The translations under genes were made by a program, and so were the position numbers. Shown one piece after another: positions 1,756 to 60,400 of a stretch of DNA of 60,674 nucleotides. The stretch is taken from assembly GCA_023269965.1 (NCBI GenBank), contig JAGDXU010000003.1, forward strand, positions 1 to 60,674, in the 5' to 3' direction. Origin of the DNA: Candidatus Parvarchaeota archaeon. GTDB lineage: Archaea > Nanobdellota > Nanobdellia > Parvarchaeales > Parvarchaeaceae. The stretch's first letter is position 1, and the number at the start of each line of letters is the position of its first letter. The notes under the pieces are model-generated. The model was not told the DNA's origin, made no database searches, and worked only from the letters and a program-made list of their open reading frames with translations.

Positions 1756-3204
1756 TCATCTGTACATGTCCCTGGCTTTCTCATCATTTTCCTTTGTTCT
1801 CTTTGTGAGCTCGGCGGCTTTGATGTAATAATCAACGTTTATGTTGTAATCATGACTGTCGGTGACATTCTTATTCGCAAGGTCGTAGGCAAAATTGCTC
1901 TCGGCTATTGAGGCCATCGACTCTATGTCCCTTCCACTGAACCCTTGCGTCTTTTCGGAGAGCTTTTCCAATTCTTCTCTGCTTAGGTTCTTCGCGTATT
2001 TGGATATTATATCTATCCTGTCTGGCTTGTCTGGCATTCCGAAATAGATCTTCGTCTTAAACCTGGACACAAGCGCTGGGTCAAGGTTATCCAGCAGATT
2101 GGTGCACCCTATTATCAGTAGATTCTTATTATCCTGGGAGCTTATGCCACTTAACTTCGTAAGCAGCGTGTTCAAGACCTTCCCGCTTTCAGTGCCATAT
2201 GTGTAGGTTCTGCTACCTAGTGAGTCTATCTCGTCTATGAAGAGCACAGTCTTACCGTGTTCATTCGAGTACCTCACTGCGCTGTCTATGGCGGCTTCCA
2301 TCCTCTTAGATGATTCGCTGTACCAAACAGAGTATATTTTTGACAGGTTCATGTACAGAAAATTGACCTTCTCGTCGTTGGCAATTGCCCTGGCCATCAT
2401 CGTCTTGCCAGTACCAGGCGGGCCATAAAAAAGAGCAGAATCTACATCTGTACTGATCGACATTCTGTTTGCACTCTTCACAGCTTCAAGCAGATCCTTG
2501 TATAGGAATGGAACAAATATCTCCCTCTTTACCCTGTCTTTTATCTCCTGATATCCACCAATATCAGAAAGACCCACGTTGCCCTTGTAGACCTCCACTC
2601 CAAGGTCAGCCAGTATCTCTTCTATGGTTTTCCTAACTACCTTCTTTCCATCTCCGGAGTTGGCATCTACATGGACTCGCCCACCCTCCTCTTTCGCATT
2701 GGTTTCATTGATCATCTTGTTTATCTTGCTCTCCACGAAATTTAGGACGACTTCATTGTTCAAGATCTTGTAAATATCCGCTACTAATTCTGGTTCCTTT
2801 AGGAGGGGCTTAAAGAAATTGGTCGACTGGTAGTCCTCCTTGTAGGCAGAGTAAACTGAAAGCGATAGTAGGTGGTAACCCTTCCCGTCTAAAAAATCGA
2901 AACTAATTTTATCGTTTTTATACTCTACCTCAGTCTTAACATCCCCGAATTTATCAGAAAGCTGCGATTTTATGTAATTTAGGGATTTGAGCAGAAGAAG
3001 AGAGATATCGTAACTTTCATATTTGTCCTCAACTTGATAGCTGTCTATCAAAGACAGAAATTCATTTTCAAAATTTATGGAAGTTCGAAGGATGTTCTCC
3101 AATTTGAAATTCTTTGACACGGCTTCTTTAATCGTATTGCTATGATTCGGCCTTTCAGATATGATTTGTTCAATCGAACGCTTTATTTCATACAAAGATG
3201 ACAT
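1756..3204 (-). CDS. AAA+ ATPase (classic AAA clade) with an unrecognised ~220 aa N-terminal domain
   Basis: Walker A is GPPGTGKT and Walker B is VLFIDEIDS. A second region of homology and arginine finger region follow (GCTNLLDNLDPALVSRF). There is a single AAA module. Confidence 0.85.
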   Translation of the reverse strand: MSSLYEIKRSIEQIISERPNHSNTIKEAVSKNFKLENILRTSINFENEFLSLIDSYQVEDKYESYDISLLLLKSLNYIKSQLSDKFGDVKTEVEYKNDKISFDFLDGKGYHLLSLSVYSAYKEDYQSTNFFKPLLKEPELVADIYKILNNEVVLNFVESKINKMINETNAKEEGGRVHVDANSGDGKKVVRKTIEEILADLGVEVYKGNVGLSDIGGYQEIKDRVKREIFVPFLYKDLLEAVKSANRMSISTDVDSALFYGPPGTGKTMMARAIANDEKVNFLYMNLSKIYSVWYSESSKRMEAAIDSAVRYSNEHGKTVLFIDEIDSLGSRTYTYGTESGKVLNTLLTKLSGISSQDNKNLLIIGCTNLLDNLDPALVSRFKTKIYFGMPDKPDRIDIISKYAKNLSREELEKLSEKTQGFSGRDIESMASIAESNFAYDLANKNVTDSHDYNINVDYYIKAAELTKRTKENDEKARDMYR

Positions 3205-3274
3205 AATTCACACCGACAAAAATATATGAAATTAGGTACTATTTATAGTTGAATTCTATGGGATCCATGTAGCT

Positions 3275-4096
3275 TCAAGACAGCAGATTCCTCGCTCTTT
3301 CCAGGTCTTTGAATGAGTGTATTTTGATCCAGTTGCCATTGCTAAGATAAGCTGAAAGAGATTCCTCCTTCGCAAGTATGGGGAGGAGATCGCCATGTAT
3401 CTTCCAGTTCATGTTGCCTGGCGGGATATAACGCAGCAAGGACGGCTCAAACAGCATGATGGATGTAGGCACCAGCTTGCTCTTTATTTTAGTCTCTATC
3501 TTCTTGTAGTTCGTTATCTTGTTTCCTCTTATCGTGATCAACGCATTTGTCTCATACTCCTCTGATGTTGTGTTCAGCACGGCTATTGAGGCAGTGCTGT
3601 TGTGAGAGTCATGAAAGTTCAGCATATCCTTCAGGTCTATGGAGAAAACCGAGTCGCCAGGCACAAAGAGCGTAGTGGAGGTTATATAATCTCTTAGCTT
3701 TTCCAATGCCTTCGCGTCGCCTATCACCTCATTGTCATCAAAATACTTGATATTCACGCCGAAGCCCTCGCCGTTCTTGAGAAGCGTAAAGGCACCCTTT
3801 AAGATCTCAGATTTACCGGATATGATGATGTTTCTAAAGCCGCCTTTTTTCACTTGTCCTATTATCTTCTCGATGATAGTTTCTGACCCTAGCTTGACTA
3901 GAGGGCTGTACAGATTAGTCCCCTCTATGACGAGGTCCCCACCACATAGAATAACCGCGCTTTTTTGAGACTCAAAGTATTTTTTGAGTATGCTCTCCAC
4001 CGCCTCGCTTTTTGATCTGTATGAGATATTGTCAACCAAAGAATCCAACTTGTCTATTATTTCGGGATCGACCGTGAACGACACTCGCGCTTTCAT
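3275..4096 (-). CDS. Ribbon-helix-helix (CopG/NikR-like) domain fused to a sugar-phosphate nucleotidyltransferase-like domain
   Basis: The N-terminus MKARVSFTVDPEIIDKLDSLV...RSKSEAVESILKKYF follows the RHH pattern. It is followed by AVILCGGDL...LFVPGDSVFSIDLKDMLNFH, which resembles the NTP_transferase fold. Confidence 0.6.
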   Translation of the reverse strand: MKARVSFTVDPEIIDKLDSLVDNISYRSKSEAVESILKKYFESQKSAVILCGGDLVIEGTNLYSPLVKLGSETIIEKIIGQVKKGGFRNIIISGKSEILKGAFTLLKNGEGFGVNIKYFDDNEVIGDAKALEKLRDYITSTTLFVPGDSVFSIDLKDMLNFHDSHNSTASIAVLNTTSEEYETNALITIRGNKITNYKKIETKIKSKLVPTSIMLFEPSLLRYIPPGNMNWKIHGDLLPILAKEESLSAYLSNGNWIKIHSFKDLERARNLLS

Positions 4097-28049: not shown

Positions 28050-28135
28050 TGTCGGGGATGGGATTTGAACCCATGACCTCCGCCTATCCCAGATCATCTC
28101 ATGAGGGCGGCGTACTACCGCTGTACTACCCCGAC
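28050..28135 (-). tRNA. tRNA with CAT anticodon (elongator Met or Ile2) carrying a ~14 nt intron, no encoded CCA
   Basis: The minus strand reads GTCGGGG-TA-GTACAGCGGTAGTAC-G-CCGCC-CTCATG[AGATGATCTGGGAT]A-GGCGG-AGGTC-ATGGG-TTCAAAT-CCCAT-CCCCGAC-A. The intron sits at the canonical 37/38 site. G1:C72 and the anticodon stem argue against an initiator. Confidence 0.85.
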
Positions 28136-28629
28136 TATCTCTTATAGCCTATGTCTCTAAGAAATTTATGCCTTTTCTTACGGGCATTATCATCCTCTAC
28201 ACCCAATGGCTTCTTGCCGTCTATCACTCCAATGATCCCCCTTCCGTTCTCCCCGTCATCATATCCGACCACGGTTATGGGATTAGATGTTGCCACATAT
28301 AGACCAACGACTTCTTCAACTTCTTTTATCCTGTTTAATACGTTTATTGGATACCCCTCCTTCAGGATTATAACAAATATGTGGCCTGCACCTATCTTTG
28401 AAGATATGTCTATACTCTCCTTTATTAATGAGTCATCGTTTCCGTCGTATCTGATCAACCTATCCCCTGATGCCTCATTAAAAGCTATACCAAATTTCAG
28501 ATGCGGAGACGAAGAAGCTAAGCATTCATATAAGTCTTCGACTGTCTTTATGAAGTGCGATTGCCCTATTACTATATTCTCACCTTCATGTACATTTATC
28601 TTCACTTCAAATATTCCTTTGCTTTCCAT
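28135..28629 (-). CDS. Adenosine-specific kinase family (PF04008-like) protein
   Basis: The 164 aa protein has [15 protein letters not shown]...GAGHIFVI...GVIDG, a pattern I recall from the COG1839 family. The antisense ORF at 28151-28642 is low-complexity. Confidence 0.55.
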
Positions 28630-28673
28630 ATGTTATGGTTAATTATCAACGGATTAGACAAGACTAAACAACA

Positions 28674-31600
28674 TTATTCGCATTCATGTGGTATTTGGGA
28701 AACTGCCATGCACTCCTGGTACGAAAACGCGTATCCTATAGTTTGGGTTGAACCAGCCTGTAAACTACCACTTGCCGGAGCAGGGGAGTAAACCTGTGTA
28801 TATTCATAACCTGTTGGACATGATGGATGACTACTAGGGAAATAGCAGCCATTCGAAGCAGTGAATTGATAAGTTCCCGGAGATGTTGTAAACAAGGTAT
28901 ATGAGCTAGATGAAGATTTAGTATTACCATCATAAGTTAACCACCAATCTGCACCCGATGGTAACCCACTTTCTATAAATGTAGTTTCGACTGACTGCTG
29001 TGATGATGGCTTTGGAGGGTACAAAGACAGATGCGGCCCTGTTCCAGTGTTGACCTGATATATCGGGACTGGCACAACATTATAAGACTTTGGAGAGACT
29101 AAAAGCGTATAGCTTATGTTCCAAATCGTAGGCAAGTTGTAGGCCATATAATAATTAGAATAAACTGCATATGTTTGATTATTATTACCTTGGTAGATGC
29201 AGTTCACTATGTAACCATATAGTGCGCTGTTTATGCTGTTGCAGTCTTCATCGGATGAGATGTTAAGCTGAGTACCCTGCCCATTATATCCTGCAGAGAA
29301 GATTCTGCTGTTGCCGTTAGGGCACTTTGCATTCAAATTAGCGGCAACTCCACCTGAACTGTATAAGGAAACGGATGGAGGGCTGTTCACACTGCTATTC
29401 TTCACGCTATAGAACTGGACTGAATGAACGCCTTCATTCAGCCCGCCTAGAAGTAAGTATATCCCATTTGAGTAAATCGATGGGAGAGTATTACCATCAC
29501 ATAATTTACCTTCCCCAAGCGAGAATATGCCATTGTTTCCTTGGGTTAAGGATCCGGGGCAGTTGCCCTGAGTCCCACCGCTGAATATATTCATCGCATA
29601 GTCTAATTCACTCCCGTTCACAAAAGCAGGAACGCCGGATATTGCAAAGTAAGGATACTGGAGCAGTAATGTACTCAGCAAATCATAAGGATACAACGGC
29701 GATTCAAACATTGCAACAGATTCTATGGCAGATTCTAGAGGCTTGTAAGGGTAAAGTTGAGTGAATTCATTTATTAGCTCATGCTGTGAAACGGAGAGGC
29801 TGGTCATGTAGAAATCCTTCGTTTTCGCGTTGTTATTCCCAGGTATGTACACATTCAATGGAGAAGTAGAATTAATCACACCTAAACCAACGCCTACATC
29901 TGAAGCAGGGGAGTATTGTAGCACAAAGGAGGCATCCAACGTAGAATTCTTGGAGTTGGGGTATGCAAAACAATTGTACTGTGGATTCGGAGCCTGATAT
30001 GCAGATGCATTGACAGAAGCTGGCAACGCAGCACATGACAAGCAGCTAGCACCATACTGTGGCGAGTTCGAGGTCAATGTCTCGAGACTAGACGATTCCT
30101 GCGGAATATTTGAAACACATGACGATGGTGAATAAGTCAAGCTTTGATTACTGGAATAATCTCTTGGTGTTTGCGTGACGTTTTCACAAGCCAAGATGCT
30201 TCCAGATCCAGAATTGCACGAATAGGTGTACTGAAATCCGCCTCCAGAAGTAGTTGATTTAGAGATAGTTGGGGCACTTGTGTTGTAAGTGAACCTGCAA
30301 GCCTCACATGCGCCTACATCCGGCAGAATATTTGGATTCCCAGTAGTCGGTATATTATTGTCTGAAAATGTAAATGGAGTCCATGACCATCCATAATTAT
30401 TCACATTAGTAGCGATATTATTCGTTTTATTTTCGCATAAGAAAGTGGACTGGTTGAAAACTGTCGGCTCACTTTGAGTGAATGATATCTGGGTAGTGCT
30501 TAAACTCATATACACAGGTGATACACCAGTAGGATAATCAGGAATATAGTCGACGCCCCATACGCTTCCATTCGCACCTGTGACGCTGGTTGGGCAATTT
30601 CCATTTGAATAACTAAAACTGCTATAAAGATTTGGATCTGTAAGCATAGAACATTCTGAGGTGAAAGTCAATGGATTCTCATTAAGAGTACCTGGTGTAA
30701 TAAACGCAGGAGAGCACGTTGTCCCGCTCGTTGCCCCATCAGAATAGCTGCATCCAACAGGCTCATAACTCCAGCCACTGCATGAGCCTAAAACCTGTGT
30801 GGTGTTTGAGGCGTTAACGTAGGTTACTGACTCAGTCACATTTGCATAGCCGCTACAAGAAAACGATGCATCAACCGCTGAAGGTGAGGAAGTAGGTATT
30901 CTGCTGCCGCTAGAGTAGCTGAAAGATATACTTCGAGTAGACGAGACGACAGCACTATTAGATGAGAAGTTACCTGCATAGTAATGAGATATCGTTCCGG
31001 CAGTAGGGGCGCAACTGTAAGTGGAGTCTATGAGACATCCGCCGCCGGCAAGATAATTTGAACCGGTTGTTGCTGCTGTTGGAATGCACTCCAGGCTCTT
31101 AAATGAACCAGGCTGCGGGACAAATGAAACCTGGGATAGACAAGGCGTAAATGCGGCAATTGTAGTGTTTATTGGACAACTACTTATCATAACGCCACCA
31201 TTTGGATTGAATAGTGCTTCAGAGCTTGGGGAGGCTATGGAATTATTCATTATATAATTCTCCGGATTAGAATTATCATATGGTTGTAGTACTCCATTCA
31301 TATAGAACTGTGGCTCTGATAAAGTCGTATAAGTATAACCACTGTAACTGTAACTCTGATGTGGGGGTAGAGCACACAAACCGTAATAGGTAGTAGTAAA
31401 CTTATTCCCAGACGTGGTTTTGAAAGTTATGTTATAATTTCCAGGCTCGAATTGAAATCCTAATCCGGTCGTATAATTTTCATTAGAAGAAGATGAAGGC
31501 GGAAAGTTACTTGAATACGTTGCTGGAGCGCCATTGTAAAGGCAGTAAAAACTACCCTCATCCGACGGACTCAAAGTGACTGGCTGTTCTGTCTCAGAAT

Positions 31601-34600
31601 TAGAGTAAGTCTGGATCTGTTGTATTTGACTTTGCAGGTTCAGGCAGCTAGATCTAAAGTTGTTGATAAGGCTGGATTGAACTTCATTGTAATTTGTGAT
31701 TTCATGATAATACTTTACGGTTGAATATTGCGTACATGACGTCTGTATTGGCTTGCTGACATTCAATGTAATCTCATTATTGGTTTCTGCCAATGAGAAG
31801 TTACCATTAAGGGAATCACTTATAAAGAAGTCAACTGGATTGCCCTGACCATACACAGAGTCCAAAACTATATTTCCACCGTTGAAGAAGCAGTATGAGC
31901 TTATGAAATTCTCTGTTGGGTTGGTTATAAGATAAAGCTTGTTCAGATCGTAGTTTATCTGACCAAAGCCTGACATCTCATTATTTACAGTCTGGGATGA
32001 CGTGAAAGAAACATCGAAACAGTCCATAATCGGGCCACTTTGCATAAGGCTTATCGACACCGAGTTCGGCTCCACTGAAACATTATTTATCAACGTATTT
32101 CCTACACTCTCACCATATATCGTGGTATTACTAAGGCAAGGCCCATAGCTTGGTTTACACTCTGGTAAAAGATTGAAATCACCGTTTGTTGTCTCTATCT
32201 TGTAGTATCCATTGTATGCTGTGTAGTTCAGCCAATTCGAAGGATACTGCATGGATGGCTCTTCAGTGGCTTCTAATAGTGTATAATTGCTTTTGCCCAC
32301 AACTGGGACAAACATGTATGTACAGATGTTACTATTAGAGCCCACAACCTGATACGGTAGCTCCTGATATGGATAGCTACCATACTCGGTGATTCTAAGG
32401 AGATTACAAGATGAACCTAGCAAAGGCAAAGGCAGAGAAAACTGTATAGGCAAGCCAGAAGGAGAATTCGAAGGCAGGGATATGTTCTGCAAAGCTGATG
32501 GATTATCATCTATTATATTCGGAGACCTGGCTATGATACTTCCCTTAACAAGACGAGATGAAGTTATGTTTGAAAGGTAAATGCTCACTGGTGATACAGT
32601 TCCATCTCTATATAGGTAAGCAATCAGATCATAGTTGAAGCCATTATCAGATGCGCTTCCGGTGAAATAATTGGAACATGGAGAAGTGGATGAGGAGTTC
32701 AATACGCCACCAGTCACGATTTTACCCTCGAAGCAGGTTTCAATTTCAGGGTTTCCGTTGTTATAGGTTATATTGAAAAGTGTTACATTTTGTGAATTTA
32801 TCGGCTGCCCATTGTATGTTATATACAGCCTAGTGGCATTCAAGTATGTAACAGTGAAGCCAGAACCTACATCGCTACTGCCTAGGTACTCCCCATTTGA
32901 CGCATTCAACAACACAGCTCTTATGTAGTTGAATTGACTTGGTGTATTGCAGAAGATTTGGCCTGAGCCGAGGTTATACTCCCCGGGGGCTATCTGAGAA
33001 ACAGAACTGTCATTGAACAGGGTGCCATCGTTAACAAAGTTGCAGGAGAAAGGTGTCCCATTTATGTAATAAAGGTAAGCATCTACATTCTTATTCACAG
33101 TGGACAAAGGCGTATAAGAGAACCTGAAGGATACTCCATTTGCCAGAGAGACGCTGCTGTTAGGCATTATAATCGTAGTGTTGTAGTAACCTGTAACATT
33201 GTTCCCCCTTGAGAAGTTAGCGGCGACAACAAAAGCATTATTTTGTCTCGTGTTAGAGACATTTAGAGAGGATGCATTGTACATCGAAACTGTAAACGGC
33301 CCATCCTTAGACTTTATGATTATTGTATAGTTCTGATACGGAGTCGACTGACAATTATCGTTTATGATAGAATTACTAACGCCTACAACACCTGAAGAGT
33401 TTGTAGTCAGAGTCTGCGTAGAAAAGCTGCAACCGGCTTCAGGCGATATTATAACCTGTATATTGCTAAATGGATTAGGGTTCGTCAGAATCTTCATAGA
33501 TGCAAGTCTTAGGATACTTGGGTCATTCGAACCCGCATCCGCTATCATCTTGAACCCATATGAATCGATCGGCGGAGAGAACATGTCCGAGAACTTTATC
33601 CCGGTATTTGTGGTGGTATTGAAGAAGTAATAGCTGTAGTTCAAATTTGAATACAAATTGTTTTCTGGGCCGCTACCGAAGTACAAAAGCGCTTCCTTAT
33701 AAAATGAAGCCTCCGGGTTCTGGACGCTTGCACTCTGCACCTGGAATGAAGCAGTTGAACCAGGATAGTACGGCACATTATTATAGTTCAGCACGACTGG
33801 AGATGAGTAAGGCATAAATAGTATCCCCCTCCACCTATCGATAATCTCATTCTGATACGGTGAGGTCTGCCCATATACGTCCTTAAGCAGGTAATTTATG
33901 TTTGACGGGGAAGATGGTTGGACAGACCAGTAAACACTAAAATCATTCAGATTGTCCTGAGATGCGAAACAAGTCAACGTGGAACCCCTTATGTTCGAAG
34001 CTGATATGGATGGGTAATACCCTGTACCGTTTAATTTTGACACGGTAAGACCGAATGAAACATTAAGTTTCTGTATTGTGCTCTTCAATGCACTTACAGT
34101 GAAGTTGAGGCTGTTATTGTAAATTGAAACATTCGCGAAAGGCATGCTCGTAAGATTAAACTTGTATGACACGATGTACTGCCATACAGGCGAAGGTTCT
34201 CCACTGGACTGGTTTATGTACTCTTTATTGTGGATAAATGAGCTATTTTCTATCGATGATGCCACATAATTCGGCCCGTACTCATGATAGAATGTAACTG
34301 GACCGGAAGACCCGTAGAAACTGACATTGAAGGTGTTCCCAAAGAACACACTTATGTTATCACCGCTTTCCATCAGCTTCTTGAAAACAGGCATCGGTAT
34401 GTTTACAGTGAAAGAAGCTGTTCCGCCTGGCGATATGATAGGCACCTGTGTATCGCTTGAATTTGCAAAATCCATGAAGGTATTCGCAGACCTTATAGCC
34501 TTTCCATTGTAGTATATCCACATGCCAAGCAATGAGTTATTATAAGGCCCATTTATGTAGTTATACGGAGAATTCTGAAATATCTCTCCTATCGGCATAT

Positions 34601-37025
34601 CTTGAATTGGGTTGGAGGGGGTTGAGACATACATAGCTGTCTCAGAACCATTAATGTATCTTATCTGAAATACATTGTTGAAATTCGAGCTGGAAAGTTC
34701 ATCTAGGAAATTTTGGTACAGATGATACTGATTTGACGACGATTGCTGGGCTGAATAGAACATATTCGAGATGTTTGTATGATTGTATAAAACAACTAAA
34801 TAAGGAGAGGTTATATTATCATTACCAACGTTCTTTACAGTTATTATCAATGGAACAACAGAGCTGTTAGAGTTGAAAGCGGGGCAGTTGGAAACCCTCA
34901 TCATAAAGATAGTTGAATTGGCCAATGGGTCCGTTATGTTCTTTTGACCCCCGAATAATCCGCAGTATTGACCGCCGTTGTTGGCTACAACAATCGAATT
35001 TATCCAAGCGTCTGTGACATTGTAGGGAACTATTCCGTACCTTGTACATGTAGGGTCTCTTACGAATATACCATATTTAAAGTTCATGTAATTGCCTGAC
35101 TGCACGGAACTATCCACTGCCCCGCCAGGTAAAACAGTGTCAAAGCAATTCGTGTTATTGAACAGCGCGTTGCATTCACCTATGGCAACTGTGTAGTTCT
35201 CCAAAGATGTTGGTGGTATTACCCTAGTGTATCCTGGGGAGTTATACTGACCAGTATTTTGATTAAACGAATCATTGTAGAAACAGAAGCTATCCAAAAC
35301 TCTGGATTCAAAAATATTTAGCGCATTTTGAGTAGTAACAAATAAATTAGGATTATATCCCGGTGTATAAGGATTATATTGGAGATCATTCATATAAGTC
35401 TGTGGATTGCTCGTATACTCAAGATTACCTGGATTAGATAAGACCGTATTATAATAAGCTGCTGGTTTGCTGACTCTGCCGTTGTAATATGGAGGACTAT
35501 AGGTCGCGTGATAATCCCAGAGCCTATAAGGTGATATTGCATTCACACTGGATGCATTATTAAAGGTACATGAAGCCCCTTCATAACTTCCAGAGGGATA
35601 ATTGCATATTGGGAAAACCCCACTTACCTTGAAAACATTTGGTGTAGACCCTTGAGGAGTTTCACCGAGTAAGCCAGCAGCGATAGGATTTACAAGCAGT
35701 GAAAGAAGATCTGCAGGCAAAGTAGAGCCAACAACAGTAAGAGTATTGGGGAAGTAGCCTACCTGTAAATTAGGGACCGTATAAGCTGAAACGTTTGACT
35801 GTGTTAATGCGTAGGTTATATTAGGAGAGGCACCGGATTCGGTGTTATACGTCAATACAACATCCTTGCTCTCATACGCATACGCCACATCTCCTATGTT
35901 ACCGGTGTAGTTTATAGGTGTGCTGAAGAAATTAGAAACATTGTAGTATATCTTATCTCCGTGATTGCCAGGAGGGAAGTTAGCATAATTTAATCCAGGC
36001 TCAGTGAAATTGAAGGTAGAATCGAAAAAATGAGAAGCGGTTAACGAGAACATGCCCGATGCTTGATAAAATTCCTGTTCACCAAAAGGGTTAATTAGTC
36101 CCCCCATATCGAATGGAAGCAAAGCATACAAAGTCTGTACGCCACTGGGGACATTTGACGCTTCACCAACTGAGGATACGAATCCACTTAGGGTCTTAAT
36201 ATCTGGGACTGTATGATACACCAATGCTGAAGTAGCCTGCGAAAGATAACCGCGAGGGATGGGAAATGTACTGCCACATGAAACGGCTGGAACAATGAAC
36301 GTAGCTTCCCCAGTCGGATTAGCGCCTTCGGCACTGTCCAAAGGCACTGTATTAGTTGGATTGGTTGGAGTTTCGAAGAAAGGGAAGCTGTAGTTTATAG
36401 CAAATTGATCACCAAAACTGTAGGTGTTTATACTATTGTACCAATTTACAAAGTTATCAGTTTCATTATAAGCGTAAAAGGGAGTGCCCGCACCTACAAA
36501 GGAATTTTGCACGAAAAGAACTGAGCTAAGTTCACTTATTAAAGAGTTACCAGAGCTCTGCGGATACCCAAACCAGCCTTCAAATGAGAAAGTATCTACG
36601 GGATTTGCTGGTTCGTTAACATAAATACATGAGTACCAGCTTATACCTAAACCGCCCAAAGAGATCCACCTGCAGTATAAACCGATCTTAAGCTCTGTAT
36701 AATAATTACATTCACTACCATAGGCATTACCAGGTATGAAATATTCATTGTAGGGATATACATAAGCCACAGTCAAAAGATTTTCTGAAGTCTTTTCATT
36801 ATTAATGATGGTTTGCTGAGGTGATGGGTCAGGTGACTGCTGGAAGCTAGTTATGTGTTGATTGTTAGATACATATGTAGACATAGAATCATTGTTTAGG
36901 GATAGCGATTTATAATGGGATACATAAGAGAAAAAGAAGAGCGATACAACGACCAGAAGAGCAATCACTAAGATTAGATCCTTTCTTTTCCCTGCATCGT
37001 TTTTAGCTTCCATAATCTTTAACAC
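28674..37025 (-). CDS. Giant (about 2780 aa) N-terminally anchored, predicted heavily N-glycosylated surface protein with a C-terminal ESGLPS-type domain
   Basis: It is an uninterrupted 8.35 kb ORF. The N-terminus KRKDLILVIALLVVVSLFFF is a signal anchor. The remainder is N/S/T/Y/P/G-rich, K/R/D/E-poor, and has many N-x-S/T sequons and Cys. The track start is GTG at 37025, and the in-frame ATG at 37013 is more likely. Confidence 0.85.
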   Translation of the reverse strand: MLKIMEAKNDAGKRKDLILVIALLVVVSLFFFSYVSHYKSLSLNNDSMSTYVSNNQHITSFQQSPDPSPQQTIINNEKTSENLLTVAYVYPYNEYFIPGNAYGSECNYYTELKIGLYCRWISLGGLGISWYSCIYVNEPANPVDTFSFEGWFGYPQSSGNSLISELSSVLFVQNSFVGAGTPFYAYNETDNFVNWYNSINTYSFGDQFAINYSFPFFETPTNPTNTVPLDSAEGANPTGEATFIVPAVSCGSTFPIPRGYLSQATSALVYHTVPDIKTLSGFVSSVGEASNVPSGVQTLYALLPFDMGGLINPFGEQEFYQASGMFSLTASHFFDSTFNFTEPGLNYANFPPGNHGDKIYYNVSNFFSTPINYTGNIGDVAYAYESKDVVLTYNTESGASPNITYALTQSNVSAYTVPNLQVGYFPNTLTVVGSTLPADLLSLLVNPIAAGLLGETPQGSTPNVFKVSGVFPICNYPSGSYEGASCTFNNASSVNAISPYRLWDYHATYSPPYYNGRVSKPAAYYNTVLSNPGNLEYTSNPQTYMNDLQYNPYTPGYNPNLFVTTQNALNIFESRVLDSFCFYNDSFNQNTGQYNSPGYTRVIPPTSLENYTVAIGECNALFNNTNCFDTVLPGGAVDSSVQSGNYMNFKYGIFVRDPTCTRYGIVPYNVTDAWINSIVVANNGGQYCGLFGGQKNITDPLANSTIFMMRVSNCPAFNSNSSVVPLIITVKNVGNDNITSPYLVVLYNHTNISNMFYSAQQSSSNQYHLYQNFLDELSSSNFNNVFQIRYINGSETAMYVSTPSNPIQDMPIGEIFQNSPYNYINGPYNNSLLGMWIYYNGKAIRSANTFMDFANSSDTQVPIISPGGTASFTVNIPMPVFKKLMESGDNISVFFGNTFNVSFYGSSGPVTFYHEYGPNYVASSIENSSFIHNKEYINQSSGEPSPVWQYIVSYKFNLTSMPFANVSIYNNSLNFTVSALKSTIQKLNVSFGLTVSKLNGTGYYPSISASNIRGSTLTCFASQDNLNDFSVYWSVQPSSPSNINYLLKDVYGQTSPYQNEIIDRWRGILFMPYSSPVVLNYNNVPYYPGSTASFQVQSASVQNPEASFYKEALLYFGSGPENNLYSNLNYSYYFFNTTTNTGIKFSDMFSPPIDSYGFKMIADAGSNDPSILRLASMKILTNPNPFSNIQVIISPEAGCSFSTQTLTTNSSGVVGVSNSIINDNCQSTPYQNYTIIIKSKDGPFTVSMYNASSLNVSNTRQNNAFVVAANFSRGNNVTGYYNTTIIMPNSSVSLANGVSFRFSYTPLSTVNKNVDAYLYYINGTPFSCNFVNDGTLFNDSSVSQIAPGEYNLGSGQIFCNTPSQFNYIRAVLLNASNGEYLGSSDVGSGFTVTYLNATRLYITYNGQPINSQNVTLFNITYNNGNPEIETCFEGKIVTGGVLNSSSTSPCSNYFTGSASDNGFNYDLIAYLYRDGTVSPVSIYLSNITSSRLVKGSIIARSPNIIDDNPSALQNISLPSNSPSGLPIQFSLPLPLLGSSCNLLRITEYGSYPYQELPYQVVGSNSNICTYMFVPVVGKSNYTLLEATEEPSMQYPSNWLNYTAYNGYYKIETTNGDFNLLPECKPSYGPCLSNTTIYGESVGNTLINNVSVEPNSVSISLMQSGPIMDCFDVSFTSSQTVNNEMSGFGQINYDLNKLYLITNPTENFISSYCFFNGGNIVLDSVYGQGNPVDFFISDSLNGNFSLAETNNEITLNVSKPIQTSCTQYSTVKYYHEITNYNEVQSSLINNFRSSCLNLQSQIQQIQTYSNSETEQPVTLSPSDEGSFYCLYNGAPATYSSNFPPSSSSNENYTTGLGFQFEPGNYNITFKTTSGNKFTTTYYGLCALPPHQSYSYSGYTYTTLSEPQFYMNGVLQPYDNSNPENYIMNNSIASPSSEALFNPNGGVMISSCPINTTIAAFTPCLSQVSFVPQPGSFKSLECIPTAATTGSNYLAGGGCLIDSTYSCAPTAGTISHYYAGNFSSNSAVVSSTRSISFSYSSGSRIPTSSPSAVDASFSCSGYANVTESVTYVNASNTTQVLGSCSGWSYEPVGCSYSDGATSGTTCSPAFITPGTLNENPLTFTSECSMLTDPNLYSSFSYSNGNCPTSVTGANGSVWGVDYIPDYPTGVSPVYMSLSTTQISFTQSEPTVFNQSTFLCENKTNNIATNVNNYGWSWTPFTFSDNNIPTTGNPNILPDVGACEACRFTYNTSAPTISKSTTSGGGFQYTYSCNSGSGSILACENVTQTPRDYSSNQSLTYSPSSCVSNIPQESSSLETLTSNSPQYGASCLSCAALPASVNASAYQAPNPQYNCFAYPNSKNSTLDASFVLQYSPASDVGVGLGVINSTSPLNVYIPGNNNAKTKDFYMTSLSVSQHELINEFTQLYPYKPLESAIESVAMFESPLYPYDLLSTLLLQYPYFAISGVPAFVNGSELDYAMNIFSGGTQGNCPGSLTQGNNGIFSLGEGKLCDGNTLPSIYSNGIYLLLGGLNEGVHSVQFYSVKNSSVNSPPSVSLYSSGGVAANLNAKCPNGNSRIFSAGYNGQGTQLNISSDEDCNSINSALYGYIVNCIYQGNNNQTYAVYSNYYMAYNLPTIWNISYTLLVSPKSYNVVPVPIYQVNTGTGPHLSLYPPKPSSQQSVETTFIESGLPSGADWWLTYDGNTKSSSSSYTLFTTSPGTYQFTASNGCYFPSSHPSCPTGYEYTQVYSPAPASGSLQAGSTQTIGYAFSYQECMAVSQIPHECE
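28707..28832. repeat. Copy A of a 126 bp perfect direct repeat (3' end of the 2783 aa gene)
   Basis: It is identical base for base to 37049-37174 (offset 8342 bp). Near-identity continues to about 28892, including a second exact 38 bp block at 28855-28892. Confidence 0.95.
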
Positions 37026-57547: not shown

Positions 57548-57683
57548 ACTAATTTAGATTAGAGGCAAATGCAATATTTAACTCTGTATTGGAACTAATC
57601 TGACTAGATTATTCAAGTGATATTCTGCATGGGAATAATGCCTGTCAATTATTAATATTCGACTTTCAATAATATCTATAGCT

Positions 57684-57756
57684 GCTCCTATAGTCTAGCG
57701 GCCAAGGACAGTGGCCTCTCGAGTCACAGACCCGGGTTCAAATCCCGGTGGGAGCA
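57684..57756 (+). tRNA. tRNA-Glu (anticodon CTC), no encoded CCA
   Basis: It reads GCTCCTA-TA-GTCTAGCGGCCAAGGAC-A-GTGGC-CTCTCGA-GTCAC-AGAC-CCGGG-TTCAAAT-CCCGG-TGGGAGC-A. Confidence 0.85.
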
Positions 57757-57893
57757 AGTAGATAAGTGGTTAATACCATTTATTAAAACTATTTGAGGTG
57801 ATATATATCCCATTTCAGTTCATTTGTCTACATACTGGACCGAATCGGAAAACATTAAAAACCTAGCCAGAAACAAAATTAATTGTATAATCT

Positions 57894-58925
57894 CTAATTA
57901 TAATTGAAATCTCCGTTTTTTCCAAAAGGAATCTTATGTTGATATCTATAATTAACCAGGAATTTAAATACATCTATGCCCTTTAAGTCCCAATTAAAAT
58001 GTTTTGTTAAGTTTTCTACATACTCATCATTATCAAAGCCCAAGTAATTTGTAATGCCATTCTCTAATATTTCTCTTGATATTTTAATTCTTAGATTTTG
58101 TTCTTCTTTTGGTAGACTTTTAAAGTATCTTAGCTTAGCGAGGTTGTATTTAAGCCACATTGCTCGCTCTTTAAAACTACTTAATCCCTTCGTTTTCAGA
58201 TTTTTGATTTCAAGCACTAAGAACGATATAAACCAATATATATGTATATTCCTAGAAATTGAATCTTCATCCCCATTAAACAATTTCTTTCCAATCTTTG
58301 CTAGTAAACTGTTATTATTTAAAACGAAATTTTTTATATAAAAGTTAGTTAATGGTCTTTCATAACTTTCTATTTCTAAATAGTTTTTAGTGATATAAAC
58401 TCTACCTTCTTTATTTGTTCCATGATCTATTAAATGTATACTCGGTTCAACCAATTTTCCTTTCAGTTTGAATTTTATCCCTTCGTGTATTATACCAGTA
58501 ACTTTATAAACTGAGTCTTTACTGAATAAAACCCAAGGTTTTATGTATCTTTCTTTTTCGTTTAATATATAAAAATCATAGAGAGGGAATGAAAATTTTC
58601 TTTCAATAATAAATTTTATTAAATTTTTATTAGGTTCTTCGTCAGCGTCTAACTTAAATACATATTTTGAGTGGCATTTGTCTATCCCATACTTAATCAT
58701 AGGATCTGAATAACCTGTTGGTAAAACTCTATAGATTTTTACCCTATTTAGTGATTTTGTTTTATTTATTAGTTTTTTGTATTCTAATTTATCAGAGCTG
58801 TCTACAATAACTATCTCGTCAACAGCGTCATAAAGTAAGTAGATGTTTCTTAAAATTCCATCAACTTCATTTCTATTAAACATTAACAAGGATACCGTTT
58901 TTCGATCCGAATTTAGTTTTTGCAT
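57894..58925 (-). CDS. Glycosyltransferase family 2-like protein
   Basis: VSLLMFNRNE...DEIVIVDSSD and KLDADE fit the GT-A DxD architecture. The gene is very AT-rich. Confidence 0.55.
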   Translation of the reverse strand: MQKLNSDRKTVSLLMFNRNEVDGILRNIYLLYDAVDEIVIVDSSDKLEYKKLINKTKSLNRVKIYRVLPTGYSDPMIKYGIDKCHSKYVFKLDADEEPNKNLIKFIIERKFSFPLYDFYILNEKERYIKPWVLFSKDSVYKVTGIIHEGIKFKLKGKLVEPSIHLIDHGTNKEGRVYITKNYLEIESYERPLTNFYIKNFVLNNNSLLAKIGKKLFNGDEDSISRNIHIYWFISFLVLEIKNLKTKGLSSFKERAMWLKYNLAKLRYFKSLPKEEQNLRIKISREILENGITNYLGFDNDEYVENLTKHFNWDLKGIDVFKFLVNYRYQHKIPFGKNGDFNYN

Positions 58926-59046
58926 ATTAAATATAAAACGGCCTTTAATTTATTATTTATAGATTATACAGTATAAAAGCGATATATAAAAATTTATTTA
59001 TTCTTCATATTTTTGATTAAACCCTAGGTTTAATAAATGAGATATA

Positions 59047-59781
59047 TCATATTTTAATTGCCACAAATGTTAATCTTCTGTCTTTTATACTATAATTTTT
59101 AAATGTATACGTTTTGTATATACTAAGCAATCTAAAACCATGCCTTGTAAGTAAAGTTTTAATTTCCTTTGGCCTATAAACTCTAATCTTAATTTTATTC
59201 TTTTCGATTAGTTTTTCCGAGTCGTAGAATAATTCTTCCATTAAAGAGAATCTATTGTCCCTTTTGTTAAGATAATTTATAGTGATCTCTTTTATTTTAT
59301 CATGGTAAGATTCATTTATAATTTTTCCCTTTGAAAGCTTCTGAAGGGTAAGATCACCATTGTATATTTCCATTAATAATAGTCCTCTATTTCTCAGGTT
59401 CCTATTAAAATTATCTAGTGTAATCTCGTTTTCTTTGTCACTCATATAACCAAAAGAAGAGAACCAGTTTATTACAACGTCGAAACTAAAATCGAATGAA
59501 GAACTACGCATGTCCCCAACGAAATAATTACTCTTATACTCTGGATAAGTTTGGATAGCTTTGTTTATTAGTTCATTTGAGATATCAACACCATAAACAT
59601 TATACCCAAGACTTCTTAGAATCTTATGATGCCTGCCGTATCCACAAGGAATATCGAGTAAATTTTTGTAAGTATCATTTAATTGCTTTGAGAATTTATT
59701 CAGTAATCTATTTATATATAATGCGTCTTTTTCGGTTCTGTATTCTACAGTGTCTATGTGCCACCTGTAAAGATCTTCCAT
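59047..59781 (-). CDS. Class I SAM-dependent methyltransferase
   Basis: Motif I is LLDIPCGYGRHHKILRSLGYNVYGVDIS. An acidic loop and post-I motifs follow. Confidence 0.8.
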   Translation of the reverse strand: MEDLYRWHIDTVEYRTEKDALYINRLLNKFSKQLNDTYKNLLDIPCGYGRHHKILRSLGYNVYGVDISNELINKAIQTYPEYKSNYFVGDMRSSSFDFSFDVVINWFSSFGYMSDKENEITLDNFNRNLRNRGLLLMEIYNGDLTLQKLSKGKIINESYHDKIKEITINYLNKRDNRFSLMEELFYDSEKLIEKNKIKIRVYRPKEIKTLLTRHGFRLLSIYKTYTFKNYSIKDRRLTFVAIKI

Positions 59782-59812
59782 TTAATAGATATTATAATTC
59801 TAATATTTATCC

Positions 59813-60400
59813 TTAAATTCTGTTATTTTGATAAGCCTCTATCTTACCATTTTTCACTAAGTAATATTTTATGTTTTTATAATTTGATTCATGCATAAAA
59901 TATCTTATGTTTTCTTCCCTGTCTTCGAATAAATTTACGTGATTATAATTTCTTGCGATCTTTATTAATTCATTTAGTTTCCATTCCTTTTCTGTCAAAC
60001 TTTGGTCTGGAAGCAGTATTAATTGCTTATATCTTAATCCATATGCATTGAGTAGCGACTCCGTTTCTTTTCTTAGAAATTCAGTCCTATAACTTAAAAC
60101 TATTAAATCTATATTCTCTATTTTGCTTAGTATATAAGCCATTACTGGTTCATTTGGTAATAAACTTTTACTGTAGATATCATAAGCTAACTTGTAAATT
60201 TCTCCCCTAAATTTTTGGTCTAAGTTTTTAGGGGTGGCCCCATTTGTTATTATGTATTTTAGCTCACTTATTACCTCATTTATCTTTTGCTTACTTGAGC
60301 GAAAATTCTCTTTTATGTAATTTATTGTATTTGATATCGCTTCATTAGTCAAAAATAAAGTATTATCGAAGTCAGATACTATCGCATATAATTTTTTCAT
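59813..60400 (-). CDS. HAD-superfamily hydrolase-like protein
   Basis: The N-terminal DxDxT motif is IVSDFDNTLF. Length is 195 aa. Confidence 0.6.
   Translation of the reverse strand: MKKLYAIVSDFDNTLFLTNEAISNTINYIKENFRSSKQKINEVISELKYIITNGATPKNLDQKFRGEIYKLAYDIYSKSLLPNEPVMAYILSKIENIDLIVLSYRTEFLRKETESLLNAYGLRYKQLILLPDQSLTEKEWKLNELIKIARNYNHVNLFEDREENIRYFMHESNYKNIKYYLVKNGKIEAYQNNRI

Follow-up and report, generated by a model that had tools for sequence, protein, structure and literature searches.

A predicted giant secreted protein encoded with pilin-like proteins in a conserved operon: a candidate pilus-linked adhesin of Parvarchaeales

Results

Organization of the locus

The stretch of DNA analyzed in this work (hereafter, the window) is a 60,674-nucleotide contig of Candidatus Acidifodinimicrobium (DPANN), a tiny symbiotic archaeon of acid mines, in which five genes, named here A, B, C, D, and E, lie on the reverse strand, the cluster sitting between tRNA-Asn and tRNA-Met. 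They form a conserved and tightly packed operon, A-B-C-D-E, whose junctions are mostly overlapping or a few bases long, E being the last gene. Gene E (28674..37025, reverse strand) encodes a giant, predicted secreted protein of 2783 aa if read from a GTG; the true start is probably the ATG located four codons downstream (37013, MEAKNDAGKRKD...), giving 2779 aa, since the closest orthologue (locus L003) begins with ME... at the equivalent position. Database copies are annotated with either length. The frame is open throughout and intact, as the preliminary description had stated in reporting an uninterrupted 8.35 kb ORF covering about one-seventh of the window (13.8%). The same description had presented E as a single-ORF surface protein; E does not stand alone, however, but closes an operon of overlapping genes whose other products have prepilin-like N-termini.

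Gene A (42209..44704, reverse strand) encodes a protein of 831 aa with the N-terminal prepilin-like signal MLNRRT/QVVIAIGILILALAFF (the slash marks the putative processing site), and gene B (41396..42205, reverse strand), the most conserved of the cluster, a protein of 269 aa whose start resembles that of a mature pilin (M-A-V-M-E5 and, after it, a hydrophobic helix). Gene C (40825..41415, reverse strand), present in 17 species genomes, encodes a pilin-like protein of about 190 aa (..KSKRG/QLTIIDLLVAPIVAIVL..) with four conserved Cys residues, and gene D (37019..40828, reverse strand) a pilin-like protein of 1269 aa (MNNKG/QANIIAVIGMILAVIF...), whose stop codon overlaps the annotated start of E. 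A candidate operon promoter, an A/T-rich, TATA-like stretch read by eye (AAAAGATTAATATTCTTATAAC), is located within the 40 bp upstream of the start of A (44705..44745, reverse strand). The cluster is flanked by core housekeeping genes in conserved synteny. No gene for an ATPase, a platform protein, or a prepilin peptidase was found in the window or beside any of the clusters seen, and no C-terminal transmembrane (TM) segment was found in A-E.

Pilin-like features of A-D

According to the rules proposed for archaeal prepilins, the residue at -2 is charged, that at -1 is Gly, Ala, or Ser, and the site at which processing occurs lies ahead of the H-domain, with Gln at +1 in EppA substrates (PMC4371748). 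The N-termini of A, C, and D are of this type, having a charged residue at -2, Gly or Ala at -1, Gln at +1, and then a hydrophobic helix of about 20 residues, and their motifs are invariant across about 20 genomes ([KR][KR]G/Q in C, [KR]G/Q in D, and [KR][AT]/Q in A). In this genome, A has Thr at -1, not Gly, Ala, or Ser, most of its orthologues having [KR]A/Q, and B has no leader but does have Glu5. A strict rule, [KR][GA] plus a hydrophobic helix, was passed by C and D only, among the 65 ORFs of the window.

No pilin or pilus family model of Pfam (PF04021, Class_IIIsignal, included) or NCBIfam matched A-D; the curated pilin N-terminal models (PF04021 and the TIGRFAM archaeal flagellin/pilin N-terminal domain) gave no match even at E <= 10, and the PDB sequence searches with B, C, and the N-termini of C and D matched no solved pilin. 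When A-E and the upstream gene were scanned against Pfam, NCBIfam, and PHROGs, the sole result was a weak match of B to the pseudopilin HpsB (E = 0.025). Since no pilin family model matches, it is by their N-terminal motifs and gene context that A-D look like pilin-like proteins.

Composition and N-terminal signal of E

Lys, Arg, Asp, and Glu account for 9.1% of E versus 25.8% across 44 other ORFs of the window, with 4-15 charged residues per 100-aa bin; the depletion previously claimed is therefore strong, although E is not almost devoid of these residues. The abundance of Asn, Ser, Thr, sequons, and Cys was confirmed: Asn, Ser, and Thr represent 32% of the protein, Cys residues are 58 (2.1% versus 0.4%), and N-x-S/T sequons are 79, that is, 2.84 per 100 aa versus 0.63; shuffled sequences of E's own composition would contain 60 ± 6, so the observed number is higher by about 3 SD. 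In the comparison of orthologues, invariance extends to 34 of the 58 Cys residues, while only 10.5% of positions overall are invariant, and 22 of the 79 sequons are kept in distant orthologues. Among the invariant residues, Cys, Gly, Pro, Asn, Tyr, and Trp prevail; Asp, Glu, His, Lys, and Arg are scarce, and the sole invariant His is H2530.

The only hydrophobic segment of E is LILVIALLVVVSLFFF (36930..36977, reverse strand), preceded by KRK, which agrees with the basic-hydrophobic signal anchor described previously and which appears to be a signal peptide or signal anchor of the Sec type rather than a prepilin signal; no second TM segment was found beyond it. The N-termini of the orthologues are variable, always basic and then hydrophobic, without [KR][GA]Q, and the class III signal peptide test on E and its orthologues revealed no [KR][GA] processing site before the H-domain. 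From these features, E is predicted to be extracellular, with a Sec-type N-terminal signal or anchor.

Charged residues are 8-9% in all the acidophile orthologues, 20% in the giant homologue of the neutral-pH Ca. Haiyanarchaeum, and 27% in another relative. As distant clusters with the same module have an ordinary composition, and composition tracks habitat, the scarcity of Lys, Arg, Asp, and Glu and the excess of Asn, Ser, Thr, and Tyr read as an adaptation of the whole extracellular module to acid (pH ~2-3) rather than as a pointer to some special function. The likeness to acidophile envelope proteins that had been pointed out for E holds as far as acidophily is concerned, an S-layer or envelope role being possible.

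Modules and predicted structure of E

The N-terminal region of about 510 aa (35382..36917, reverse strand) is the least conserved part of the body, with many indels among orthologues (identities of 0.09-0.33 with the distant ones and gap fractions as high as 0.6). Residues ~560-745 constitute a Cys-rich core domain (34791..35336, reverse strand; SFCFY...YTR.IPP...CNALFNNTNCF...VTDAWI...CG...CP.FNSNSS.VPLIITVKNVGN), the only part still detectable in the Haiyanarchaeum-type giant proteins (hhalign probability 97.4%, E = 1.2e-11 to the homologue P0024); the part of E alignable between orders measures only about 180 aa. The AlphaFold2 model of residues 545-1112 (20 sequences; mean pLDDT 62.6, pTM 0.68) predicts, with moderate to good confidence, a mostly β region made up of β-sandwich-like modules with few helices (34002..35099, reverse strand), where pLDDT is 70-92 across most of the segment residues ~100-420, with local dips. 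Foldseek searches with this model against PDB and BFVD retrieved no significant structural neighbor, the weak, non-significant ones being Gram-positive adhesins and pilins, integrins, and TCRs. The model of residues 1741-2779 (7 sequences) had a mean pLDDT of 33.7 and was unusable; about 85% of the length of E is without an assigned fold. A second strongly conserved block emerged from the orthologue alignment at about residues 2350-2650 (29064..29966, reverse strand).

The C-terminus carries one copy of a discrete module of about 95-110 aa (28692..29021, reverse strand; TTF.E.GLPSG..W.V.Y.G...SS...I.F...G.Y.F.V....C..Y.PSPSSGSL.AG....I.F...C), for which no match was found in Pfam, NCBIfam, or PDB. 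Its consensus looks akin to that of the thermopsin-associated C-terminal repeat of Sulfolobales/Thermoplasmatales surface proteins (V.F.E.GLP.G..W.V...G....I.F....G.Y.Y.V), presumably what had been recognized in the last ~100 aa when E was first described. Gene D, located upstream, ends in a copy of this module (37037..37363, reverse strand) that shares 72% identity with the one in E, and 126 nt are identical base for base between the 3' ends of the two genes (37049-37174 = 28707-28832), 8.3 kb apart, which indicates gene conversion; over the first half of the module, the two copies have diverged from each other. Within E, self-BLASTP returned the identity match alone, and TRF reported just a trivial 15-nt x2 repeat in its DNA. 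The reported absence of tandem repeats thus holds for this copy of E and not for its orthologues, which harbor from 0 to 8 tandem copies of the ~95-aa C-terminal module.

Similarity searches with E

Sequence searches of Pfam, NCBIfam, PHROGs, and PDB yielded no match for E, and a Pfam scan of seven orthologue segments at E <= 1 nothing consistent; the best result of the PDB sequence and profile searches (with E, its alignment, B, C, the C-terminal module, and the N-termini of C and D) was a HYDIN ASH-like entry at E = 0.13. In particular, the C-terminal β-propeller of PilY1/PilC, the N-terminal vWA domain, and DUF2341 are absent from E and the seven orthologue segments (Pfam/NCBIfam, E <= 1), as is Laminin_G_3 (LamG) from E (Pfam). 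The homology to a characterized S-layer or protease family that might have explained E was looked for and not found, no S-layer family matching in Pfam, NCBIfam, or PDB. An HMMER scan of 1.84 billion proteins retrieved only 18 relatives of E, and the literature searches no description of its gene family or of the A-E cluster.

Orthologues, selection, and distant clusters

More than 20 Parvarchaeales genomes, those of ARMAN-4 and ARMAN-5 among them, have an intact orthologue of E, 2,487-4,018 aa long, at an equivalent place in the chromosome, and the same protein, C-terminal module included, occurs in three independent assemblies. The gene order A (~800 aa), B (268), C (~190), D (~1140-1270), E (>2100-3300) adjoins the gene for the CCA enzyme in most of the loci whose flanks are long enough to tell (L001, L003, and L005, together with most of the 17 species genomes, again including ARMAN-4 and ARMAN-5); at the opposite end, an adenosine-kinase gene is found in the loci that extend that far. 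The dN/dS values of E (0.07-0.13) denote purifying selection; B and C evolve the slowest (0.02-0.06) and A and E the fastest (~0.1), a pattern of rates that fits an interaction protein placed upon a conserved scaffold. Within E, the highest values are those of the C-terminal module (0.3-0.4), and no positively selected segment was found, no sliding window of 150 codons exceeding 0.42. The codon adaptation of E is ordinary (CAI 0.72, a value that most of the reference genes, ribosomal and EF-1α, exceed), an index without discriminating power in this genome, and its GC3 is somewhat below that of the neighboring genes.

Two more distant clusters, of ordinary composition, were found in Ca. Haiyanarchaeum (locus L024, neutral-pH) and at locus L026, and the homology of A, B, and D to their counterparts (A' and D' of Haiyanarchaeum for A and D) was confirmed. 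In both, A'-E' directly follow small pilin-like genes. At L026, 10 of the 11 genes preceding the giant gene have signals of the KKG/Q, KKG/I, or KKG/A type, and one of these ten is the homologue of B (B''), which carries a full KKG/Q prepilin signal. The lectin-like LamG domain Laminin_G_3 is present in the remote homologues of E, P0024 (E = 1.7e-16) and P0025.

Discussion

Parvarchaeota (ARMAN-4, ARMAN-5, and their relatives) depend on hosts, have not been cultivated, and possess genomes of about 0.5-1 Mb. For this genus, only VirB11 and TadC have been reported for pilus formation, and no further proteins for cell-cell interaction were found (PMC7779479), while pili-like fibers and "Velcro-like" contact densities have been described in ARMAN cells (PMC4110969). 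Of a genome of this size, E occupies about 1.5% and the whole operon of five genes (16 kb) about 3%, and the operon is intact and under purifying selection in every genome examined. This large share of the genome and this intact retention make A-E a strong and concrete candidate for the attachment apparatus.

With its one hydrophobic segment, its conserved Cys residues and sequons, and a core modeled as β-sandwich-like, E looks extracellular, and structural or adhesive. The reading that we favor, with confidence and doubt in about equal measure, takes E for an adhesin, glycosylated and rich in disulfides, that would be displayed, in analogy with PilY1, by a complex of minor pilins resembling a type IV pilus. 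In such a surface structure of Parvarchaeales (ARMAN-type DPANN), E might be the large subunit at the distal end, where it would bind a host or a surface. According to this model, A-D would enter the membrane, undergo processing by a prepilin peptidase, and come together by way of their N-terminal helices, using the VirB11-type ATPase and the TadC platform of the cell, to give a short filament or a priming (tip) complex. E would be exported by the Sec pathway, fold outside the cell into a disulfide-stabilized, N-glycosylated chain of mostly β-sandwich modules, and dock on the A-D complex, probably by the single domain conserved across orders (residues ~560-745); the lineage-specific rest of the protein and the variable C-terminal modules would touch the host, for example, a Thermoplasmatales cell. 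The logic would be that of the bacterial minor-pilin/PilY1 tip complex. Class III signals also serve surface complexes other than filaments, such as the Sulfolobus bindosome, so that the present evidence fits "filament tip" and "pilin-anchored surface complex" alike. Archaeal type IV pilus (T4P) loci often encode large "adhesin" proteins with a signal peptide and many conserved Cys residues, for which the PilY1 analogy has already been proposed by Makarova et al. (PMC4858521), and in another ARMAN, LamG proteins are linked to T4P loci (PMC5498576).

A different function, which we consider unlikely, is that of main structural envelope protein of Parvarchaeales, E forming, much as SlaA does, a sheet of the S-layer or "outer wall" type, with A-D as membrane anchors or assembly factors. 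The low charge, the richness in Asn, Ser, Thr, and Tyr, and the many sequons of E do recall the S-layer glycoproteins of acidophiles, but E resembles no S-layer family, and a SlaB-like partner, with a C-terminal TM segment and a coiled coil, is absent. A wall protein would also agree with the universality of E in the order, its fixed locus in the core genome, the purifying selection along its whole length, the conspicuous ARMAN wall of unknown composition (PMC4110969), and the S-layer-like proteins noted inside archaeal T4P loci (PMC4858521). However, the last place in a tightly packed operon does not suggest the large stoichiometric excess that a wall needs, nor does the ordinary CAI, a test of little power here; moreover, a conservation limited to about 180 aa between sister orders, together with module copies varying from none to eight, would be unusual for a lattice-forming protein.

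It appears quite improbable that E is instead an effector acting against the host, membrane-anchored or secreted, such as a protease, a glycosidase, or a pore- or bridge-forming factor, rather than a passive adhesin. Giant DPANN proteins with enzymatic modules are known, such as the SPEARE proteins (PMC6642349, PMC10266531), and cytoplasmic bridges between ARMAN and host have been reported (PMC4110969). The portion of E without an assigned fold would leave room for a catalytic domain; yet no catalytic family was detected in E or the seven orthologue segments even at E <= 1, no PDB sequence matched E, and the invariant Cys, Gly, Pro, Asn, Tyr, and Trp, with few charged residues or His, point to a structural scaffold rather than to an active site.

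Lastly, E is a real conserved gene and not an assembly artefact, given its same-position orthologues in more than 20 genomes and the purifying selection acting on it: in spite of the perfect direct repeat at the 3' ends of D and E, of a kind that can confuse short-read assemblers, of the flanking tRNA genes, and of the slightly low GC3, the readings as a chimera across the repeated module, a decaying pseudogene, a chance frame, or a mobile or viral element are effectively refuted by conserved synteny with housekeeping neighbors, selection, three independent assemblies, a divergence in the first half of the module that no mis-join produces, and the absence of PHROG matches.

Returning to the adhesin displayed by a pilin-like complex, a broader proposal can be advanced, in which we place more doubt than belief: A-B-C-D-E might be a previously unrecognized, order-wide host-contact organelle of Parvarchaeales and Jingweiarchaeales, derived from type IV pili and made up of the giant pilin-like proteins A (830 aa) and D (1270 aa) and the leaderless pilin B, with the modular adhesin E (~300 kDa) as a cap. 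Such an organelle might be the basis of the fibers and "Velcro-like" densities seen by cryo-ET between ARMAN and Thermoplasmatales, and the variable parts and module number of E might set host specificity. In any case, the five genes are defined targets for metaproteomics, antibodies, cryo-ET, and comparisons of symbiont-host range, and they offer a clean natural experiment in acid adaptation, the same module having 20-27% charged residues in the two distant clusters, which are not adapted to acid, and 8-9% at pH 2-3.

Comparison with known systems

SlaA, the S-layer glycoprotein of Sulfolobales, is an extracellular, low-charge, Asn/Ser/Thr-rich protein of acidophiles, with dense N-glycosylation sequons and β-sandwich domains. 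E shares these traits (its extracellular location and β-sandwich domains being predicted), but it has no sequence similarity to SlaA, is twice its size, lacks a gene for a SlaB-like anchor, and is located in an operon with pilin-like proteins.

The giant and LamG surface proteins of DPANN, such as SPEARE of Nanohaloarchaeota and the LamG-like, PKD, and CARDB proteins of Micrarchaeon Mia14 (PMC5498576), are, like E, very large, secreted, encoded by tiny symbiont genomes, and presumed to have a role in host contact; a link to T4P loci is known for some of the LamG genes of Mia14 (PMC5498576), and Laminin_G_3 is carried by the two remote homologues of E mentioned above. On the other hand, Pfam detects in E none of the LamG, PKD, CARDB, protease, or nuclease domains, and the genes for those proteins are strain-specific and often located on genomic islands, whereas E belongs to the core genome and keeps its locus order-wide.

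The gene-neighborhood logic of A-E is also that of the archaeal T4P loci of Thermoproteales, Methanococci, and Thaumarchaeota that encode Cys-rich, large signal-peptide "adhesin or minor pilin" proteins (Makarova, Koonin and Albers 2016), a survey whose main text has no occurrence of DPANN, ARMAN, or Parvarchaeota (PMC4858521). The two share conserved Cys residues, fast-evolving lineage-specific components, and major pilin genes that stand alone at other places in the genome. In Pfam and NCBIfam, to the extent that these can show it, A-E match none of the families of that survey, however, and the Parvarchaeales cluster is detached from the ATPase/TadC genes and from small pilin genes.

Finally, with respect to the PilY1 tip complex (FimU/PilV/PilW/PilX plus PilY1; P. 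aeruginosa, M. xanthus), E has no sequence or domain relationship (no β-propeller, vWA, or DUF2341) and has about 2.5 times the size of PilY1, two of the "pilins", A and D, reach lengths of 830-1270 aa, and the A-E system is archaeal, has a class III/EppA-like Gln+1 signal, and has no machinery genes nearby. The analogy is one of organization only: in both systems, one operon encodes four pilin-like proteins and one much larger, non-pilin protein with a Sec signal, which in the PilY1 complex is the surface- or host-binding subunit, the role that E might play in Parvarchaeales.

Identity, Conservation and Composition of the Giant Gene

The giant uninterrupted reading frame singled out in the preliminary description was confirmed: gene E spans 28674..37025 (-) and, in the ORF listing, encodes 2783 aa from a GTG as a single ORF. 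Since an ATG lies four codons downstream (MEAKNDAGKRKD...), the called start of database copies gives 2779 or 2783 aa, and the closest orthologue (locus L003) has its N-terminus ME... at the position equivalent to this internal ATG, the true length is probably 2779 aa. A protein identical to E, annotated as “hypothetical protein” of Ca. Acidifodinimicrobium sp., is present in three assemblies; the representative MAG of this Parvarchaeales genus measures 0.47 Mb, with 80% estimated completeness and a GC content of 42% (PMC7779479), with which the window agrees. A word-indexed search of 5.8 billion proteins retrieved 8 relatives, to which a profile added 2, and HMMER, run with the central 1,200 residues of E against the full set of 1.84 billion representatives, returned 18 proteins, 13 of which are full-length orthologues of 2,557-4,018 aa. 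The dN/dS of close pairs is 0.07-0.13, and no sliding window of 150 codons exceeded 0.42; a PHROGs scan gave no match. The three assemblies, the intact orthologues and the low dN/dS exclude an assembly chimera, a pseudogene or a chance ORF, and E is thus an intact, real gene.

The charge-poor, Asn/Ser/Thr-rich composition with many Cys noticed at first sight also holds, K+R+D+E accounting for 9.1% of residues (vs. 25.8% in 44 other window ORFs), N+S+T for 32%, and the 58 Cys for 2.1% (vs. 0.4% in window ORFs). The 79 N-x-S/T sequons correspond to 2.84 per 100 aa, vs. 0.63 in the background, and exceed by ~3 SD the 60 ± 6 expected from shuffles of the protein's own composition. The only hydrophobic segment is N-terminal, no further one being found, and the signal is of the Sec type, unlike the prepilin-like ones of A, C and D. 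Comparison ties the composition to acidophily: all acidophile orthologues contain 8-9% charged residues and 28-36% N+S+T, whereas E', the counterpart in Ca. Haiyanarchaeum, contains 19.9% and 20.6%, respectively, A'-D' of the same locus 20-24% charged residues, and P0025, a remote relative, 27%. Given this difference (8-9% vs. 19.9-27%), composition tells the location (extracellular, low pH) and not the function of E; the composition is an adaptation to acid.

The C-Terminal Module

The absence of tandem repeats stands for E itself, in which self-BLASTP detected no internal repeats and a TRF scan of the DNA nothing meaningful, but not for the orthologues, where the C-terminal ~95-110 aa form a unit occurring in 0-8 tandem copies, which explains much of their length variation. 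This module, the fastest-evolving part of E (dN/dS 0.3-0.4), has no match in Pfam, NCBIfam or PDB; its consensus presumably resembles repeats in surface proteins of Sulfolobales and Thermoplasmatales, those of the thermopsin family included. In this lineage the module was copied onto D, the two copies being 72% identical as protein, and the 3' ends of E and D share, over a distance of 8.3 kb, a perfect direct repeat of 126 nt (28707-28832 and 37049-37174) within ~185 nt of about 95% identity; the 5' half of the common module is diverged. Such base-for-base identity over 126 nt points to recent gene conversion between the two neighbours, and a repeat of this kind might mislead short-read assemblers.

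The Five-Gene Cluster and Its Surroundings

E had been presented as a single-ORF protein; it is one intact ORF, but sits last in a cluster of five same-strand genes, after A (42209-44704 (-), 831 aa), B (41396-42205 (-), 269 aa), C (40825-41415 (-), ~190 aa) and D (37019-40828 (-), 1269 aa). Adjacent genes either overlap by 4-20 nt or are separated by a few bases, and the odd composition of E is common to all five. Their order and sizes are kept in most loci examined, locus L002 of Ca. Rehaiarchaeum deviating; one neighbour of the cluster is the CCA-enzyme gene, and the other, in loci that reach it, the adenosine-kinase gene. A search of 185,579 species genomes with gene C gave 17 positives, including ARMAN-4 and ARMAN-5, and a giant ORF lies downstream of C in every positive locus reaching far enough.

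The N-termini of A, C and D comprise a short basic stretch, a [KR][GA]-Gln motif and a hydrophobic helix of ~20 residues, the motifs being invariant in ~20 genomes; a strict rule ([KR][GA] plus helix) was passed by C and D alone out of the 65 ORFs in the window that reach 100 aa. B, better conserved than the other four genes, starts without a leader as M-A-V/L-x-Glu5 followed by a hydrophobic helix, like a mature pilin, and its homologue in L026 (5136-6044) carries a full KKG|Q leader; B could be a leaderless pilin bypassing the prepilin peptidase.

The GC3 of the cluster genes (28674-44704) is 0.36-0.48 vs. 0.45-0.57 in most neighbouring housekeeping genes, with similar overall GC, possibly through relaxed codon selection or amino-acid context. 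Upstream of A, a hydrophilic 276-aa protein (44779-45609) shows no TM segment and no family match; its homologues (235-274 aa) precede A in most Parvarchaeales loci examined, no copy being called for L005 and L014, and it is only a possible member of the A-E system.

Outside the cluster, the window harbors core housekeeping genes (SecY and a ribosomal-protein block, EF-1α, MetRS, PCNA, proteasome, FttA, Lhr, Lon and the CCA enzyme). The adenosine-kinase gene (28135-28629) shares one base, at its stop end, with tRNA-Met (28050-28135), and is mirrored on the opposite strand by a presumably spurious 163-aa ORF (28151-28642). Although this DPANN genome is very small, its ORF at 917-1741 encodes a Ku70/Ku80 β-barrel domain (E = 2.2e-16); Ku is uncommon in archaea. 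Just after tRNA-Glu (57683-57757), a low-GC island (57900-60400; 24-30% vs. ~42% elsewhere) includes a GT2 glycosyltransferase (57894-58925), a methyltransferase (59047-59781) and one ORF without assigned function. The island may be a set of glycan-biosynthesis genes gained by horizontal transfer and, if so, would be relevant to surface-protein glycosylation.

Distant Homologous Clusters

Three weak matches from the deep HMMER search (P0024, P0025, P0026), two of which possess Laminin_G_3, share with E a Cys-rich domain of ~170 aa. P0024 comes from the sister order Jingweiarchaeales, namely from the neutral-pH hyperthermophile Ca. Haiyanarchaeum thermophilum (PMC10134863), whose locus L024 encodes A' (674 aa), B' (278), C' (213), D' (824) and E' (2537), with A', B' and D' demonstrably homologous to A, B and D; two small PilA-like genes, together with genes for several small membrane proteins, lie immediately upstream of this cluster. 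In a third lineage (L026), twelve consecutive genes include a giant protein of 2087 aa, and 10 of the 11 genes ahead of it, the B homologue among them, start with textbook KKG|Q/I/A signals. These relatives strengthen the link of the cluster to pili. Residues ~560-745 of E are the sole part alignable between orders (hhalign probability 97.4%), from which we infer that they might dock E to conserved partners.

D' (L024 7536-10010) bears dockerin/EF-hand-like Ca-binding repeats (DANGDGVI..D), which match Pfam Dockerin_1 (E = 1.2e-4) and NCBIfam dockerin_GC (E = 3.9e-5) with scores that narrowly miss the curated cut-offs, and C' (L024 6931-7572) matches Dockerin_1 weakly (E = 0.04); the acidophile proteins have no such repeats.

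Discussion

The E family has no named relative; E, its alignment and segments of its orthologues had no sequence match in Pfam, NCBIfam or PDB, and no homology to a characterised S-layer or protease family emerged. AF2 gave a pLDDT of 33.7 for residues 1741-2779 (7 sequences), and of 62.6, with pTM 0.68, for residues 545-1112 (20 diverse sequences), where ~320 residues (segment ~100-420), predominantly β-strand with few helices, mostly reach 70-92 with local dips. Foldseek found no significant neighbour of this model; the best non-significant matches were tandem Ig-like domains of Gram-positive adhesins and pilins, integrin, TCR and α2-macroglobulin. Since 34 of the 58 Cys are invariant (vs. 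10.5% of all positions), invariant charged residues are very few, and 22 of the 79 sequons recur in no fewer than 4 of 5 distant orthologues, a structural or adhesive scaffold, glycosylated and held by disulfides, would fit better than an enzyme.

The reading best supported by our analysis, to which we give about an even chance, is that A-D are predicted pilin-like subunits displaying E, a large non-pilin adhesin. Its main rival, E as a structural protein of the envelope or S-layer, seems to us rather unlikely. That E is an enzyme or effector is very improbable in view of its invariant residues, even though about 85% of E lacks a fold assignment.

Both giant DPANN surface proteins and type IV pilus-attached adhesins were known before; a conserved five-gene module with pilin-like proteins of 830 and 1270 aa plus a putative leaderless pilin finds no mention in the literature searched. 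The cluster offers a concrete and testable candidate for the attachment apparatus long sought in ARMAN. Pili-like fibres and Velcro-like contact densities have been seen on ARMAN cells (PMC4110969), LamG proteins are tied to type IV pilus (T4P) loci in another ARMAN (PMC5498576), and Ca. Acidifodinimicrobium is reported to encode VirB11 and TadC, with no known interaction proteins (PMC7779479). If A-D display E, the organization of A-E is similar to that of the bacterial minor-pilin/PilY1 tip complex, and recalls the “large signal-peptide adhesin” components that have been suggested in further archaeal T4P loci (PMC4858521).
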